A stretch of 64,000 nucleotides of DNA from an uncultured Nitrospirales bacterium. Its GTDB lineage: Bacteria > Hydrogenedentota > Hydrogenedentia > Hydrogenedentales > GCA-2746185. The position numbers and the translations under genes are program-made. This document shows positions 41,297-48,304 of this stretch, piece after piece. How positions within the stretch are numbered: the stretch's first letter is position 1; every line of letters starts with the position of its first letter. The notes under the pieces were generated by a model. The model was given only the letters and a program-made list of their open reading frames with translations. It did not search any database and was not told where the DNA came from. The stretch spans positions 15,203 through 79,202 of the forward strand of contig CAZUJL010000015.1 in the NCBI GenBank assembly GCA_964620045.1. Direction: 5' to 3'.

Positions 41297-43054
41297 TTAT
41301 TTTTCGGACTTTGGTGTAATGCGGCCATGGCTGCCCTGGAGCGTGATAACTTGGCTGGAATCAAGGGCTTCGGGGTCAAACACCTGAACCGTGGACGGGT
41401 CTTCCCAGTTGCTTTCCACGTTCACCCATCCGTCCTTGGTGTCGCCACTCTTTTCGTTGACCAGATAGGAATGCGCGTAAATCGGACTCGACATGGCGAG
41501 CACTTCGCTGGGCCCATAGCCGTCTTTCTTGGGCGCCATTGTGACCCGGGCGCGATACACCCCAGGGCCGCCGGGTTCATCCGCCACGCTGAACAGGAAC
41601 CGCTTCGCCTCGATGCGTCGCGAGCGAATGGGATATCCGTTGAACAAAATCTCCACATGCGCGCCTTCGGCGTTTTCGACACCTACGCGGAATAGCGACT
41701 TGGTGTTTACGGGCACGATACCGCCCGATCCGGCATCGATGGTGCCGTCGTTGTTCACGTCCGCCATGAACTCAATAAAGGGACCTTCGGTGCCGGAGGT
41801 CACAAACGTGCGGCCACGGCGAATGCCGTCCAGGATCCCGTTCATTGATTTCTCTTTGGCCCATACATACGTCAACGGCGATCCGAGCACTTGCTTGCGG
41901 CCCACGCTGCCGCTGCCCGCAATCATCGCGGCGCGCACCCCGCGCGTTGTTTCAATGTCGTAGTACAGCGTCGCCTGGCCGTTGGCCGAAAGCACGTTCA
42001 TCGCCGCGGCCGCCGCGATCGGATACGCATAGTCGCCGTTCTCGAGCCGTTTGCGCGTCTCTTCGGACAGATCGCCGACGTTCATCGGCTGCGTGGCACG
42101 CCATCCGCCGAACCACACTTCGACAGCGTTGTAGTAATTCAGACCCCATTGCCACTGCTGGCCCGGATGGGCCGGATGCGCCACCGCGACGATGCCGCCC
42201 TGCGCCTGCAAGCGAAGCGCAAGCGCCTGCGCCTCCGCGCGCGCGGCATCGGCCACCGGCAACGATCCCGGCGCCAGCACGAGCGCACTGCCCAACTGCG
42301 GGTGACGCCACTCGACCGCGGGAATGAGCACGAGTTTGTTTGATTTGAAGGCGGGGTCCTGCGCGGCGGCCAGCGTATTCGGGTCCGCGATGGCGAGGAA
42401 GTCCAGACGGGCCGCTTCGGCCCGGCGAATCAGATCCGCGACCCCTTCCGTTCCGGCGCCGTACTTTGATTGCGCGTGCAGTTCGCCGCGATACCACCCG
42501 CCCCGATCATTCAGCACGGGCGAGGGCCAGTCGTAGGCAGTTTCGCCCGGCATGCTGCGCGGATTGGCCGGGTCGCTGCCAAGCTCCACTTCGACACGAT
42601 CGAGCACCAAGTCGAAATCGCCGTCAAATGCGCTCAGTGAGCGATTGCCCGCGCTGCCCTCCAGCACGCTGACGGCGATCGTGGGGGTTTCCGTCGTCGA
42701 AAGTGTTATATTCTGCTGGTGCACCAGAATTGGAACGCCCCCATCGTACGCGTAAACTGAGGCCACATAAGTTCCTATTGGGGCGCTTATCTCTCCGGAG
42801 CCGTTCTGCAGTTCAACACTCACCGCATCGCCCCCGATCGTTGGAACAAGCCGAATGCGCGCGGGAAGGGCTTCCTCAAGGATGTTTTGCACGGTAACGG
42901 CGCATTTTGCAGCCGGTTTTACTTCAGCATTCGAGGTTTGCGCAGTATCCTTGTTTCGCTCTCGCCGTTGTTGCGCCTGTGCCTCAACTCCGCTTAAGGC
43001 ACACAGAAGAATGCACAGCACTCCACTCATTCGACACACACAGCGGATCATCAT
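41297..43054 (-). CDS. Exported PHP-like (CehA/McbA-type) protein with degenerate metal motifs
   Basis: Signal peptide, RGELHAQS, LAIADPN, AHP, AVEVW, GIRRGRTFVTSG...GP and YRARV...MSSPIY; start near 43054. Confidence 0.75.
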   Translation of the reverse strand: MMIRCVCRMSGVLCILLCALSGVEAQAQQRRERNKDTAQTSNAEVKPAAKCAVTVQNILEEALPARIRLVPTIGGDAVSVELQNGSGEISAPIGTYVASVYAYDGGVPILVHQQNITLSTTETPTIAVSVLEGSAGNRSLSAFDGDFDLVLDRVEVELGSDPANPRSMPGETAYDWPSPVLNDRGGWYRGELHAQSKYGAGTEGVADLIRRAEAARLDFLAIADPNTLAAAQDPAFKSNKLVLIPAVEWRHPQLGSALVLAPGSLPVADAARAEAQALALRLQAQGGIVAVAHPAHPGQQWQWGLNYYNAVEVWFGGWRATQPMNVGDLSEETRKRLENGDYAYPIAAAAAMNVLSANGQATLYYDIETTRGVRAAMIAGSGSVGRKQVLGSPLTYVWAKEKSMNGILDGIRRGRTFVTSGTEGPFIEFMADVNNDGTIDAGSGGIVPVNTKSLFRVGVENAEGAHVEILFNGYPIRSRRIEAKRFLFSVADEPGGPGVYRARVTMAPKKDGYGPSEVLAMSSPIYAHSYLVNEKSGDTKDGWVNVESNWEDPSTVQVFDPEALDSSQVITLQGSHGRITPKSEK

Positions 43055-43331
43055 GCTGACCCGGTGTTCATGTGCGTAGGCTCGATTTTGGAGCACGATT
43101 TTCTTCAAAAATCCCCCTATTTCCGCTTGAATGAATCGACAGTAAACTGTAGGATTCATGTGCGCGGAAGAGTCGGCGTAACAAGAGGCGACCCCCTTTT
43201 CACGCGGCCAGTTATGCGAGTTGCACGGCAACTTCCATCCGGCGACATCGCTACGGGTCACTCTGCGCGTATCTTAGCACAGCATAGTGTTGTGCGCAGC
43301 CAATTCGGCTTCATAAACGGGAAGGATCGAC

Positions 43332-43772
43332 ATGCTCGCAAGTATCGACATTCACAGCACCGTTGCCGTTTACATTCAAATTGAGAACCACATTCAGTTT
43401 GCTATTGCATCTGGAAAACTCAAGGCCGGTGATCAGTTGCCGTCTGTGCGAGAACTGTCCGAACGGCTGAGCGTCAATCCCAATACCGTGGCCAAGGCCT
43501 ACCGCGATCTGGAAGTCATGGGCTTGCTGTACACGCGCCGCGGCATGGGCGTGTTCGTGAACAAGGGCATCGAAGCCAAGTGCCGCGAAGACTGCCGTAA
43601 ACGCATCATCATGCGGATGCACGAAGTGGTCGCCGAATCGAAGGCCGCCGGCCTGTCGAAGAAGGACGTCCAGGACATTGTGGACAAAAGCATGGCCACC
43701 GATGCCAGCCCATACGCGGAAACGCCGCCTCCCCTCCTGGCCATGGCGAAGAAGAAAAAAGGCGCCAAGTAA
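43332..43772 (+). CDS. GntR-family regulator (YtrA-like)
   Basis: VYIQI, GDQLPSVREL, VNPNTVAKAYRDLE and RRGMGVFV motifs. Confidence 0.93.
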   Translation: MLASIDIHSTVAVYIQIENHIQFAIASGKLKAGDQLPSVRELSERLSVNPNTVAKAYRDLEVMGLLYTRRGMGVFVNKGIEAKCREDCRKRIIMRMHEVVAESKAAGLSKKDVQDIVDKSMATDASPYAETPPPLLAMAKKKKGAK

Positions 43773-43801
43773 CCGCTCCCCCGCTCCTGTAAATAATTTT
43801 G

Positions 43802-43838
43802 CACCGCACTTCGAACTGCGAAGTGCGGTGATTTCTTT
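43802..43838 (+). terminator. Rho-independent terminator after gntR
   Basis: 12-bp stem CACCGCACTTCG/CGAAGTGCGGTG, 5-nt loop, ATTTCTTT tail. Confidence 0.8.
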
Positions 43839-43943
43839 GGTCTCGCAGCTTCCCGACAACTGCAATCCCTCGCGAAGGCAAAAACTACGACAAAACCAGT
43901 CGAATAGTGCCTATTTTTGTCTAAATTCGCAGAGCGGAAACTA

Positions 43944-43972
43944 TTGACATCACCCCACTTTTGTCGTAAAGT
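43944..43972 (+). promoter_or_regulatory. Sigma70 promoter of the recombinase-domain gene
   Basis: TTGACA, 17 nt, TAAAGT. Confidence 0.75.
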
Positions 43973-44152
43973 ACGAGGAGGAACGAGTGTCTGGCGCAGG
44001 CTTGGGCTGCCTCTTGGGTCGCGCGCCAAACCCGGTTCCGTAATGTGTCGTCGGTTGCGTTTTGGAACGCGCATTAAACTACTTTAGTAGTGCTGCAACA
44101 GATACTGGGCACAGGCGCAATTTCAACAGCGGATGGTCGGACAGGCGGAAAC

Positions 44153-44671
44153 ATGGTGAAACTGGGTGAAGCAACTCGCAAGAAAACCGGAGACGAGGCC
44201 GGTGTGTCGCTGTCTGAACTCGAGATCGGCGATCACGGCGCGAAAGTAAAGCGCGGCCAATTGAGCGCTGTGCAACAGGGACGCTACGGCACAGGCCCGG
44301 CCCCCTACGGCTATCGTCGCGGCCGCGAAGGCGAACGTCCGCTCGAAATCGACGATCGCGAAGCGGAAGTCGTGCGTACCATTTTCCGCGAATACCTCCG
44401 CACGCGGAGCACTGGCAAGGTGGTCCAGTACCTCCACGCCAAGAACATCATGACCCGCAAGAAGAACAAGTGGTCGCGTCAGGCGATCGCGATCATTCTT
44501 TCCAACCGCACGTACCGCGCGCGCGTGACCTACGGTGAAGTCGAAACCCAGGGCCTGCACGACGCGATCATCGATCCGGCCCTCTTCTACAAGGCCAACG
44601 CCATCCGCGAACGCAAGCAGCGGGGCACGCGCAAGCCGCGCCGCGCCGCCGAGAACGGCAAGAAGAAATAG
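44153..44671 (+). CDS. Stand-alone large-serine-recombinase DNA-binding (Recombinase) domain lacking the catalytic domain
   Basis: ELE..D...VKRG...QGRY..GPAPYGY, EAEVVRTIF, WSRQAIAIILSN..Y and HDAIIDPALF; no YxRxS resolvase motif; in-frame TAA at 44075. Confidence 0.85.
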   Translation: MVKLGEATRKKTGDEAGVSLSELEIGDHGAKVKRGQLSAVQQGRYGTGPAPYGYRRGREGERPLEIDDREAEVVRTIFREYLRTRSTGKVVQYLHAKNIMTRKKNKWSRQAIAIILSNRTYRARVTYGEVETQGLHDAIIDPALFYKANAIRERKQRGTRKPRRAAENGKKK

Positions 44672-44690
44672 GACTCATTTCGCTTTTCCT

Positions 44691-44730
44691 CCGCCGGTAT
44701 CTTTGATAAGGTGCCGGCGGTTTCATTTTT
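44691..44730 (+). terminator. Rho-independent terminator after the recombinase-domain gene
   Basis: 13-bp stem CCGCCGGTATCTT/AAGGTGCCGGCGG (with G-U), TTTCATTTTT tail. Confidence 0.75.
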
Positions 44731-44749
44731 CGCCGCAGAGGATTCATCC

Positions 44750-45676
44750 GTGACTTCGAATTTCCGCATCGCGCTCATCGGCCAGGCGGCCTTTGGCGAA
44801 GCTGTATTGAACGCGCTCGTGAAGAATGGCGAGACCATCGCCGGTGTATTTTGTCCGCCCGACAAGGAAGGCAAGCCCAGCGACGCGCTCAAGATCGCGG
44901 CCGACAAGCACGGCCTGCCGTCGTTCCAGTTCCGCCGCATGCGCTCGCCGGAGGCGATTGCGGCTTTCCGCGCGCTGAACGCCGACCTCGGCGTGATGGC
45001 CTTCGTGACGGACATCGTCCCCGCGGAAATCCTGAATGCGCCGCGCCTCGGCACGATCCAGTACCACCCCTCCCTGCTGCCGCTCCACCGCGGGCCGAGC
45101 AGCATCAACTGGCCAATCATCCAGGGCCGCACGACAACCGGCCTCAGCATCTTCTGGCCCGACGCCGGTCTCGACACGGGCCCGATCCTCATGCAAAAAG
45201 AAACGCCAATTAGCGCCGACGACACCCTCGGCACGGTGTACTTCGATCGGCTCTTCCCGATGGGCGTGGAGGCCATGGCCGAGTCCGTGGCGCTGGTGAA
45301 GGCCGGCCGCGCGCCCAAGACCGCGCAGGACGAGTCCCAGGCCACCTACGAGGGCTGGTGCAAGGCGGAGAACTCCATCGTCGATTGGGCGCAGCCCGCA
45401 GCCACCGTACACAACCTCATCCGCGGCGCCGATCCCAGTCCCGGGGCGGGCACCACGTTCAAGGGCGCCCCGATCCAGCTTTTCGGCTCCAAACGCGATT
45501 CTGGCGGCCCAGCGGCCCCCGGCGAGGTCATTGGCGTGGGCCCCGACGGCCTGCGCGTGTCCGCCAAGGACGGCGTCGTCCGCATTGCGAAGGTGAAAGG
45601 CGGCGCGGGCAAGCTGGCCGCAGCCGATTGGGCAGCACAGGCCGGTCTCAAGCCCGGCGATCGCCTCGGCAGCTAG
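44750..45676 (+). CDS. Formyltransferase-family protein resembling the 10-formyl-THF dehydrogenase N-terminal domain
   Basis: IALIGQAAFG, QYHPSLLPLHRG.SSINW, SIFWPDAGLDTG, LFPMGV and ATYEG motifs; GTG 44750. Confidence 0.85.
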   Translation: MTSNFRIALIGQAAFGEAVLNALVKNGETIAGVFCPPDKEGKPSDALKIAADKHGLPSFQFRRMRSPEAIAAFRALNADLGVMAFVTDIVPAEILNAPRLGTIQYHPSLLPLHRGPSSINWPIIQGRTTTGLSIFWPDAGLDTGPILMQKETPISADDTLGTVYFDRLFPMGVEAMAESVALVKAGRAPKTAQDESQATYEGWCKAENSIVDWAQPAATVHNLIRGADPSPGAGTTFKGAPIQLFGSKRDSGGPAAPGEVIGVGPDGLRVSAKDGVVRIAKVKGGAGKLAAADWAAQAGLKPGDRLGS

Positions 45677-47554: not shown

Positions 47555-48178
47555 TTATACCGCCTCGAGATCCACCGGCGGCAACCAGCCGATCGGCTCG
47601 AGGATCATTCGGAAGTATTCGCTCACCGGCGGCACAAACAGGATCACGCCAATCACCGCCGCGATAATCACCAGTACCAAAAGTAGCTTCTTCTGGCCGT
47701 CGGACATGCCGCCGCCCTTGCCGCCACCGCCCCCACCACCGCCGCCGGCGACCATCATGTCGAGGAAGATCTTTTCGCCGTTTTCCGCGCGGGCTTTTTT
47801 GTCTTCAATGGCGCCCAGCGTTTCGTTGATCGAGATGAACGAGCGATGCCATTCGCCCTGCAGCTTCTTCACGGCCACTTCGGACTGTGAATACACGGCT
47901 TCGAGGTTGGTCGCGCCGGACACGATGTTCATCGTGTTCGAATCGATCTTGTAGTCCGAACCGAGCTGATCGCGAAGCACGTTGTGCTCGCGCGCCAGCT
48001 TGCTCTTGATCTTCAGGAACTGGTTTTCGAGCTGCGCCTTGTTCACACCCGGGCTCGGGTACGCGCTCAGGATCTGGTTGAACAGAAGCCAGTCGTTCAT
48101 GAATTCGCGGCACATGCTGACGCGGCGGTCGAGCACTTCCACGACTTTTTGCTGCTTTTTGCTGAGTTTAGCGGCCAA
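47555..48178 (-). CDS. Hypothetical protein: helical domain, poly-Gly linker, C-terminal TM
   Basis: GC3-biased ORF, AAGGGAAG before TTG 48178, hydrophobic LLLVLVIIAAVIGVILFV segment. Confidence 0.72.
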   Translation of the reverse strand: MAAKLSKKQQKVVEVLDRRVSMCREFMNDWLLFNQILSAYPSPGVNKAQLENQFLKIKSKLAREHNVLRDQLGSDYKIDSNTMNIVSGATNLEAVYSQSEVAVKKLQGEWHRSFISINETLGAIEDKKARAENGEKIFLDMMVAGGGGGGGGGKGGGMSDGQKKLLLVLVIIAAVIGVILFVPPVSEYFRMILEPIGWLPPVDLEAV

Positions 48179-48304
48179 GAATCTTCCCCTTAAATGGCAC
48201 TTCGGCCCGCCCGTGAAATTGGCGCGTACAGTAACACAGCGATCCGGCCAAGTCAAACGAAGACAAGGCCTAAGTTCCTGCCCGCCGGGTTCTTACGCCG
48301 ATGA

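Follow-up and report, generated by a model that had tools for sequence, protein, structure and literature searches.

In serine recombinases, the N-terminal half of helix alphaE forms the subunit interfaces of dimers and tetramers, and the DNA binding of such an enzyme can also act on transcription, as when Tn3/gamma-delta resolvase represses its own operon by occupying sites over the promoter. In the LI integrase, a large serine recombinase, helices alphaF to alphaH of the recombinase domain (RD) form a helix-turn-helix with alphaH in the major groove, the linker between alphaE and strand beta6 follows the minor groove, and the linker that leads from RD to the zinc ribbon (the RD-ZD linker) goes on in the next minor groove; the RD share in site recognition is smaller than that of the zinc ribbon, and RD contacts are relatively tolerant (PMC3783163). 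Here we describe a gene in a 64,000-nucleotide stretch of contig CAZUJL010000015.1 (hereafter, the window), the 172-amino acid (aa) product of which consists of little more than an RD and the end of alphaE; we refer to it as the RD gene and to its product as the RD protein. The RD protein is found near-unchanged, with a strong promoter of its own, across the bacterial phylum Hydrogenedentota, and hence the RD gene is a working host gene, not integrase debris. That is, domestication as opposed to decay is strongly supported, and the product most probably functions as a regulator or architectural factor that binds DNA, is abundant and is linked to the GntR-type regulator encoded next to it. We assign a rough probability of 0.6 to a non-catalytic, DNA-binding mechanism.

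Architecture and predicted structure of the RD protein

The RD gene (44153-44671, plus strand) starts with ATG and has 172 codons. An in-frame TAA (44075-44077, plus strand) closes the frame 5' of this open reading frame (ORF), and a GTG at 44090 is a possible alternative start that would give 193 aa; the ATG and the next codons (ATGGTGAA) are the start of the conserved block in the four nearest relatives (L001-L004), and the DNA before the ATG is unalignable. The sole Pfam match of the protein is PF07508 Recombinase (E 1.1e-17), with no match to PF00239, to a zinc ribbon or to HTH_7, that is, to either the catalytic domain or the DNA-binding domain expected of a small serine recombinase. The NCBIfam matches were all partial and covered the middle of CcrA, CcrB, CcrC and XisF, and the match to the PHROG family 'DNA invertase' was marginal (E 3e-4). 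The protein has no cysteine, so that a zinc ribbon is ruled out, and no YxRxS, and a tblastn search through all frames of the window and 80 related loci detected no remnant of a resolvase-like N-terminal domain (best E 0.08). These results confirm an earlier reading of the window made from its letters alone (the sequence-only reading), which had reported an ORF of this length without catalytic domain or zinc ribbon and with a basic tail. The protein has an isoelectric point of 10.4, is 23% lysine plus arginine and ends in RERKQRGTRKPRRAAENGKKK. The codon usage of the gene is host-like as previously stated, with a third-position G+C content of 0.77 vs. 0.68-0.86 in neighbouring genes. In databases, RD-only proteins of this kind are named 'hypothetical' or 'recombinase family protein'.

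Four segments can be distinguished along the plus strand. The N-terminal tail (aa 1-27, 44153-44233) is unconserved, mildly acidic and modelled with low confidence (predicted local distance difference test, pLDDT, <65); among 114 orthologues it has a median length of 28 aa (8-119 residues), a net charge of -2 and variable sequence. It is followed by the alphaE end and the alphaE-beta6 linker (HGAKVKRGQLSAVQQGRYGTGPAPYG, aa 28-53, 44234-44311), identified by their invariant columns and a model helix at residues 20-41, and then by the RD proper (aa 54-157, 44312-44623), which is delimited by PF07508, modelled at pLDDT 88-99 and matched by Foldseek to the structures 4kis/6dnw and 9dxh. The last segment is a basic C-terminal tail with seven lysines or arginines (aa 158-172; 44624-44671 with the stop codon), standing where integrases have the RD-ZD linker, zinc ribbon and coiled coil. 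The protein thus stops 15 aa past the RD; the corresponding tails are at most 29 aa long in 80/80 loci, and among the 114 orthologues they are net positive in 91% (median +6) and variable in sequence. Of alphaE, only the C-terminal ~14 residues are conserved and the N-terminal half is absent; the alphaE-like helix of the sequence-only reading therefore stands for these last residues but not for the whole helix.

An AlphaFold2 model built on a diverse alignment of 73 sequences reached pLDDT 85 and a predicted template modelling score of 0.74, whereas an alignment of 37 near-identical orthologues gave pLDDT 58. The model consists of the helix at 20-41, the linker, two short strands, helices at 68-84, 87-96 and 109-122, a beta hairpin at 124-133 and a final helix at 142-159, with the recognition helix in two parts (109-117 and 119-122, sequence WSRQAIAIILSN). 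All 26 Foldseek matches at E < 0.01 were large serine recombinases; the best were the complexes of the A118/LI integrase C-terminal domain with attP (4kis, 6dnw; root-mean-square deviation, rmsd, 1.5-2.0 Å over ~129 columns, probability 1.0) and SPbeta integrase (9dxh at probability 1.0 and related entries; ~158 columns, alphaE among them), ahead of Bxb1 and phiC31, and a profile-to-PDB sequence search agreed with this result. The columns that are invariant among the orthologues form four blocks: HG-KVKRGQL--V at the alphaE end, GRYGTGPAPYGYRRG in the linker and beta6, TRK-N-W in the loop before alphaH, and SRQA--IIL-NRTYR-RV-Y in alphaH and the next strand. These are the elements that contact DNA in the LI integrase (PMC3783163).

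Conservation and distribution

A word-index search of 5.8 billion proteins returned 506 homologues of the RD protein. The best 120 of these are all 140-260 aa long, carry PF07508 only and are 69-96% identical to it and, where the source names an organism, come from metagenome-assembled genomes (MAGs) of Candidatus Hydrogenedentes/Hydrogenedentota. When one genome per GTDB species was scanned with two invariant peptide patterns of the RD protein itself, 109 stretches were confirmed, nearly all of them labelled Hydrogenedentota, and 80 loci were kept for comparison. The short architecture is shared by 80/80 of these loci: the frame is closed 19-139 codons ahead of a 130-aa core and no more than 29 codons past its end, so that no locus has room for an integrase. 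The sequence-only reading, which held the gene to be domesticated and not a decaying pseudogene, is thereby borne out, and the substitution pattern points the same way. The ratio of non-synonymous to synonymous substitution rates (dN/dS, Nei-Gojobori) of the core is 0.020, 0.032, 0.047 and 0.039 against L001-L004, respectively, and has a median of 0.088 over the 84 pairs with unsaturated synonymous sites (overall range 0.02-0.19), far from 1; over all pairs, the mean proportions of synonymous and non-synonymous differences are 0.73 and 0.09. Hence, neither the substitution rates nor the boundaries at the 80 loci, nor the recurrence of the gene in 109 stretches, are those of a pseudogene.

The core is 72-98% identical, and the RD protein is the most conserved protein of its neighbourhood, with a median identity to the window protein of 81% (a value somewhat inflated, since the loci were found via the two invariant peptides) compared to 76% for GntR, 73% for TrpE, 66% for HU, 63% for TrpG and 44% for TatC. 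Clustering at 50% identity placed the orthologues in about four clusters, with a sharp drop to the next relatives, and neighbour-joining of the core sequences unites the orthologues in a single, tight clade at the end of a long stem. P0123, which diverges most among the orthologues, sits on a 544-nt contig.

As for sources, the exact window sequence was found in four bioreactor metagenomes. Several of the records (L002, L003, L005, L007, L016, L017 and others) are titled 'uncultured Nitrospirales/Nitrospiraceae', and one 'Bathyarchaeia archaeon'; they share the synteny of a 654-aa ORF described below, gntR and the RD gene with Hydrogenedentota MAGs, and their labels are probably those of mislabelled bins. 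The MAG AMX-MBFR-4 carries two different gntR/RD-gene loci (L012, L062), which may reflect a mixed bin rather than a duplication.

Promoter, leader and terminator

The RD gene is predicted to be a transcription unit of its own. A sigma-70-type promoter, TTGACA-17-TAAAGT (10/12 consensus positions by pattern match; 43944-43972, plus strand), lies upstream of it, and an intrinsic terminator found by hairpin search follows it (44691-44730, plus strand; 13-bp stem with eight G-C pairs at 44691-44720, then the T-run TTTCATTTTT), as the sequence-only reading had proposed in calling the promoter near-consensus and the terminator strong. The pattern TTGACA-N16-18-TAnAnT has a single exact match in the whole window, namely this promoter. 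Just 5' of the -35 element is an A-rich, UP-element-like block, GGAAACTA (43936-43943, plus strand; family consensus aGAAAAct), with an information content of 0.9-1.6 bits at positions -7 to -2 across 55 distinct promoters.

Promoter-like matches of the same type occur in 78/78 loci with enough upstream sequence, including those where the neighbour is not gntR. Exact TTGACA, a 16-18-nt spacer and TAnAnT were found in 58 of 61 gntR-adjacent intergenic regions, and the spacer is 17 nt in the 55 distinct promoters; among the other 23 loci (20 without gntR upstream and three gntR-adjacent exceptions), 20 match a relaxed pattern and three have <230 nt of sequence on the upstream side. A scan of both strands of 1.73 Mb gave 90 matches to the exact pattern, of which 73 are upstream of the RD gene, ~11 are upstream of a block of genes for a 233-aa protein (X233), HU, TatC and TatB, and the rest are at about chance level. 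The promoter therefore travels with the gene and matches the HU-block promoter in quality, which suggests that the RD gene is highly expressed. The promoter of the X233-HU-TatC-TatB block is itself conserved and likewise of the sigma-70 type; it has an extended -10 (TTGACAT-N-TGTGCTAnAnT) and is located on the minus strand 3.4-5.4 kb downstream of the core in 11 loci (L002, L004, L019, L025, L027, L037, L038, L042, L044, L056 and L057); its counterpart in the window lies near 48280.

Across loci, 165-310 nt separate the promoter from the conserved core, which gives a leader of ~60-200 nt. The leader predicted for the window is ~173 nt long (43979-44152, plus strand; start placed from the -10 position) and carries CTTGGG motifs at 44001-44006 and 44013-44018. 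The motif, [CT]TTGGG(A), is found 6-32 nt past the -10 in 37 loci and occurs together with such a promoter only once elsewhere in the data set; one subgroup (L035, L042, L060, L063) has the variant GCnCGGAU. A 5' hairpin with CTTGGG in its loop was considered as well, and support for it was moderate (mean stem 3.9 vs. 2.9 bp in shuffled sequences; stem of at least 4 bp in 16/31), so we retain CTTGGG as a sequence motif and do not claim a structure. An Rfam scan of 43700-44800 gave no match at E <= 1. At the other end of the unit, a terminator-like hairpin with T-run within 130 nt of the stop was found in 34/78 loci vs. 9/78 shuffled sequences. Four metatranscriptomes (aquatic, sediment, soil and wetland) hold contigs 80-95% identical to the core and thus contain orthologue sequence, but this is weak evidence of transcription since carry-over of DNA is possible.

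Neighbouring genes and candidate operators

Directly upstream, on the same strand, is a gene for a small, 146-aa GntR-family regulator of the YtrA/PmtR/Rv1152 kind (43332-43772; PF00392, E 3e-16; partial NCBIfam matches to PmtR and Rv1152). The same arrangement is found in 60/80 loci, with GntR 65-91% identical, and the 20 loci without gntR have no other conserved upstream neighbour in common. The two transcription units are separated by a hairpin terminator after gntR, with a perfect 12-bp stem and a T-rich tail (43802-43830, plus strand; hairpin search); L001-L004 have a hairpin of other sequence at this position. The gntR/formyltransferase synteny that the sequence-only reading had put forward is therefore upheld for gntR, whereas a formyltransferase gene lies downstream in 8/80 loci only.

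A repeat search revealed a perfect 10-nt inverted repeat bracketing the -35 element (43886-43968), with arms TACGACAAAA (43886-43895) and TTTTGTCGTA (43959-43968), of which the GACAAA and TTTGTC blocks are conserved in L001-L004, and reading of the sequence revealed a palindrome, TCGTA-aag-TACGA, overlapping the -10 (43964-43976). The elements TCGTAaagTACGA and TACGACAAAA/TTTTGTCGTA are possible operators for the neighbouring GntR-type regulator. Operators of the GntR family have a GT..AC core, and GTAnnnTAC, which fits this core, is present in 8/54 gntR-adjacent promoters and 0/17 others, a weak lead; with such a frequency, a GntR-type palindrome over the -10 was rejected as the general operator.

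The neighbours in the window are of GntR, formyltransferase, TatB/TatC, HU and TrpG/TrpE type, with no mobile-element genes among them, in agreement with the housekeeping surroundings devoid of mobile cargo noted earlier. Carriage by a phage, integrative and conjugative element or transposon, as would be expected for a large serine recombinase, is likewise not seen; chromosomal synteny is kept. A 654-aa ORF (41297-43261, minus strand), divergently upstream of gntR in 56/80 loci, has no Pfam match, and the label 'PHP-domain protein' was dropped for this reason; it is 36-59% identical to its counterparts in related loci. Genes for TatB, TatC, HU, X233, TrpG and TrpE are downstream in 21-26 of the 80 loci, with HU 2.5 kb from the RD gene in the window. 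X233 (47555-48256, minus strand), which heads the HU block, has no Pfam match, contains a poly-Gly stretch and is 57-81% identical to its counterparts. As called mechanically, the formyltransferase ORF would start at GTG 44711, inside the terminator hairpin; the most likely start is GTG 44750, past the terminator and with GAGGA 8 nt upstream. Its product falls under the NCBIfam Fmt cut-off (141 vs. 201.5 bits).

Relatives outside the phylum

The next-best relatives are 54-34% identical and 250-360 aa long, also end straight after the RD, and are in many cases named 'recombinase family protein [Planctomycetota]'. In the nearest of them (among others P0126, P0135, P0271, P0279, P0294 and P0346) the RD is 28-41% identical to that of the window protein by alignment, with up to 54% for P0126 by phmmer. 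Among relatives with at least 100 residues before GPAPYGY, 33 have YxRxS, 31 have YxRxT and 49 have neither, and several fail PF00239 altogether. Since RD-terminated relatives are often without the catalytic serine, the window gene is the extreme case of a wider clade in which recombinase chemistry seems dispensable.

Four relatives were found in chromosomal contexts that are not phage-like, and all four lie directly downstream of a divergent MreB/actin-like gene (PF06723, E 5e-18); two of these four RD proteins are named Planctomycetota by NCBI. The gene run consists of two genes without a significant Pfam match (with weak coiled-coil matches in the one locus scanned), the actin-like gene and the RD-protein gene (L081:3021-7053, L082:1737-6633, L084:1798-5885 and L085:926-5945). 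The two actin-like proteins compared are 61% identical, with a weak MreB_Mbl/Salactin family match, and the RD proteins of these runs have YxRxS, YxRxT or no catalytic motif. P0126 and P0140, which are RD-terminated and have non-resolvase N-termini, are located among many small ORFs of the same strand, in phage-like runs that also include an N6/N4 DNA methylase (L083:6001-6783 and L086:5001-5687).

Mechanism and alternative explanations

We favor the hypothesis that the RD gene descends from a serine recombinase whose half-site DNA-binding module was domesticated long ago. The module would have kept the last turns of alphaE, the alphaE-beta6 linker, the RD with its helix-turn-helix and a short basic tail; with the catalytic domain, zinc ribbon and coiled coil gone, the protein cannot cut or join DNA. 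Most likely, its binding to double-stranded DNA resembles that of a large serine integrase RD to an att half-site, with the recognition helix WSRQAIAIILSN in the major groove, the GTGPAPYGY linker and the alphaE end in the adjacent minor groove, and additional backbone contacts from the basic tail. Because the DNA-contacting residues are invariant, the target sequence should be the same throughout Hydrogenedentota. Expression would proceed from the strong sigma-70-type promoter, with its UP-like A-tract, perfect -35 and 17-nt spacer, through the long leader to the gene's own terminator, and the product would probably be abundant and act as a regulator or a factor of chromosome architecture, with a probable functional tie to its small GntR/YtrA-like neighbour.

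Several points weigh against this hypothesis. DNA binding, specificity and abundance are suggested by homology and promoter quality, and the RD alone might bind weakly or non-specifically since in integrases it contributes less than the zinc ribbon (PMC3783163). Ordinary transcription factors are seldom conserved to this degree (~81% identity phylum-wide), which may hint at a partner machine or at RNA as the target. The two-peptide locus search also inflates the apparent conservation somewhat. The link to gntR is positional: 20/80 loci are without gntR, and the palindrome over the -10 is present in only 8 of 54 adjacent promoters. Finally, one soil metatranscriptome contig also spans 43809-43990, that is, upstream of the predicted transcription start, for which DNA or read-through are possible sources.

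Alternatively, the RD protein might be a tethering adaptor, linking a chromosomal site to a partner machine of segregation, positioning or replication rather than controlling transcription, in the way ParR, a ribbon-helix-helix protein, serves as the adaptor for actin-like ParM. The placement of all four of the nearest non-orthologous relatives in non-phage-like chromosomal contexts directly after an MreB/actin-like gene favors such a role, and extreme conservation over the whole protein surface would fit multiple partners; but we consider it unlikely, since no actin-like gene accompanies the Hydrogenedentota RD gene in the window or the 80 loci, where the partner is instead a GntR-type regulator, and no centromere-like arrays were found near the Planctomycetota operons, the repeats there being coding heptads. 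The window has no intergenic repeat arrays, either. A nucleoid-associated protein that is abundant and basic and coats or bends DNA with little sequence preference, which the sequence-only reading had listed among its possibilities, would agree with a protein of 172 aa, pI 10.4 and a basic tail of variable sequence, with abundance suggested by a strong promoter conserved like that of the HU block, and with the tolerance of integrase RD contacts (PMC3783163). The invariance of the recognition helix and linker across the phylum suggests a defined target over backbone-only binding, however, and HU is already encoded 2.5 kb away, which makes this explanation unlikely as well. It appears more improbable still that the main ligand is the ribosome or a different core machine, or else RNA, be it the gene's long leader or some other RNA: conservation does reach the level of ribosomal or RNA-polymerase-associated proteins, and the long leader has a conserved CTTGGG near its 5' end in 37 loci that can form the loop of a hairpin in some, but both the fold and the residues conserved within it belong to a module that binds double-stranded DNA, the stems are little longer than in shuffles, and the leader motif varies, without an Rfam match, where the recognition helix does not.

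Two explanations keep the protein closer to mobile DNA. The sequence-only reading had also raised a dominant-negative blocker of phage serine integrases, that is, an anti-phage decoy that occupies att sites or poisons incoming integrases. The RD is common to both sides and the best viral family match of the RD protein is PHROG 'integrase', yet defence genes are usually fast-evolving and patchy, and the RD gene is ~81% identical (median) across the phylum, syntenic and seemingly single-copy, in a housekeeping context rather than a defence island. PADLOC gave no match, no orthologue (only four weak relatives, at 26-40% identity) was found among 2.9 million viral contigs, and the protein lacks the coiled-coil or alphaE interface that it would need to engage an integrase; a decoy is therefore highly improbable. 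Scarcely credible is a decaying integrase fragment, or one half of a split recombinase with its catalytic part elsewhere, which could account for the domain content (the middle of an integrase) and the in-frame stop upstream but not for identical boundaries at 80/80 loci, dN/dS of 0.02-0.1, or a conserved promoter and start, nor is any catalytic-domain remnant or gene to be found in the window or the 80 loci, and the N-terminal half of alphaE, needed for docking a catalytic domain, is missing. Taken together, the interpretation given by the sequence-only reading is partly supported: its domesticated, non-catalytic gene stands, and its integrase blocker is disfavoured. The dimeric state that it proposed finds no support, the alphaE half that makes the subunit interfaces being absent, and the protein might bind as a monomer or as a dimer.

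Significance

A broader proposal, which is speculative and on the whole unlikely to hold in full, is that a serine-integrase RD was long ago recruited as a core chromosome-handling protein, acting in Hydrogenedentota as an abundant factor at one phylum-wide site and in Planctomycetota-type relatives as the DNA adaptor of actin-like filaments. If true, the two groups together would make up a class of housekeeping DNA-binding proteins derived from recombinases that has so far gone unrecognised. No description of a protein like the RD protein turned up in the literature searched, which covered serine recombinases that are domesticated or catalytically inactive, PF07508, recombinases in Hydrogenedentota, and actin-like proteins with serine recombinases in Planctomycetes. 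Serine-integrase domains are usually read as markers of mobile DNA, and here one is encoded by a host gene that evolves slowly and that cleanly illustrates, in a bacterium, how the DNA-binding module of a recombinase can be exapted without its chemistry; the related clade with decaying catalytic motifs beside an actin-like gene suggests a broader phenomenon. For MAG surveys, the result cautions against counting PF07508-only genes as integrases or prophage markers. As a naturally minimal RD, the protein could also allow DNA recognition to be studied apart from the zinc ribbon, and as one of the most conserved proteins without an assigned role in an uncultured phylum it is a target for in-vitro work.

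Comparison with known systems

The known systems resemble the RD gene in different respects. ParR/ParM offers a likeness to the RD relatives that encode a small DNA-binding protein beside an actin-like ATPase, but such an ATPase accompanies only the four relatives, with no actin-like neighbour in Hydrogenedentota and no centromere repeats found. Tn3/gamma-delta resolvase provides a precedent for serine-recombinase DNA binding that doubles as transcriptional control; it differs in being a full, active recombinase with a small helix-turn-helix, whereas the RD protein has no catalytic part and a larger RD of the type found in large serine recombinases. The RD-terminated proteins of Planctomycetota and phage-like contexts share the stop after the RD, the basic tail and the lack of a zinc ribbon, but most of them keep a ~130-aa resolvase-like or unrelated N-terminal domain, and the Planctomycetota-type relatives (in the four non-phage-like contexts) follow an actin-like gene, not gntR; the RD-terminated proteins also have a different recognition helix (WSRAGVSWILKN). 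With the large serine recombinases themselves (4kis A118/LI, 9dxh SPbeta SprA, Bxb1 and phiC31), the RD protein shares the RD fold (rmsd 1.5-2 Å), the alphaE end, the alphaE-beta6 linker and the recognition-helix motif W-S-x-x-x-(I/V)-x-x-I-L-x-N-x-x-Y-x-G, and the same half-site geometry is expected. It differs from them in having no catalytic domain, nucleophile serine, zinc ribbon, coiled coil, att sites or mobile element, and in being encoded by a syntenic, chromosomal gene under strong purifying selection across an entire phylum.

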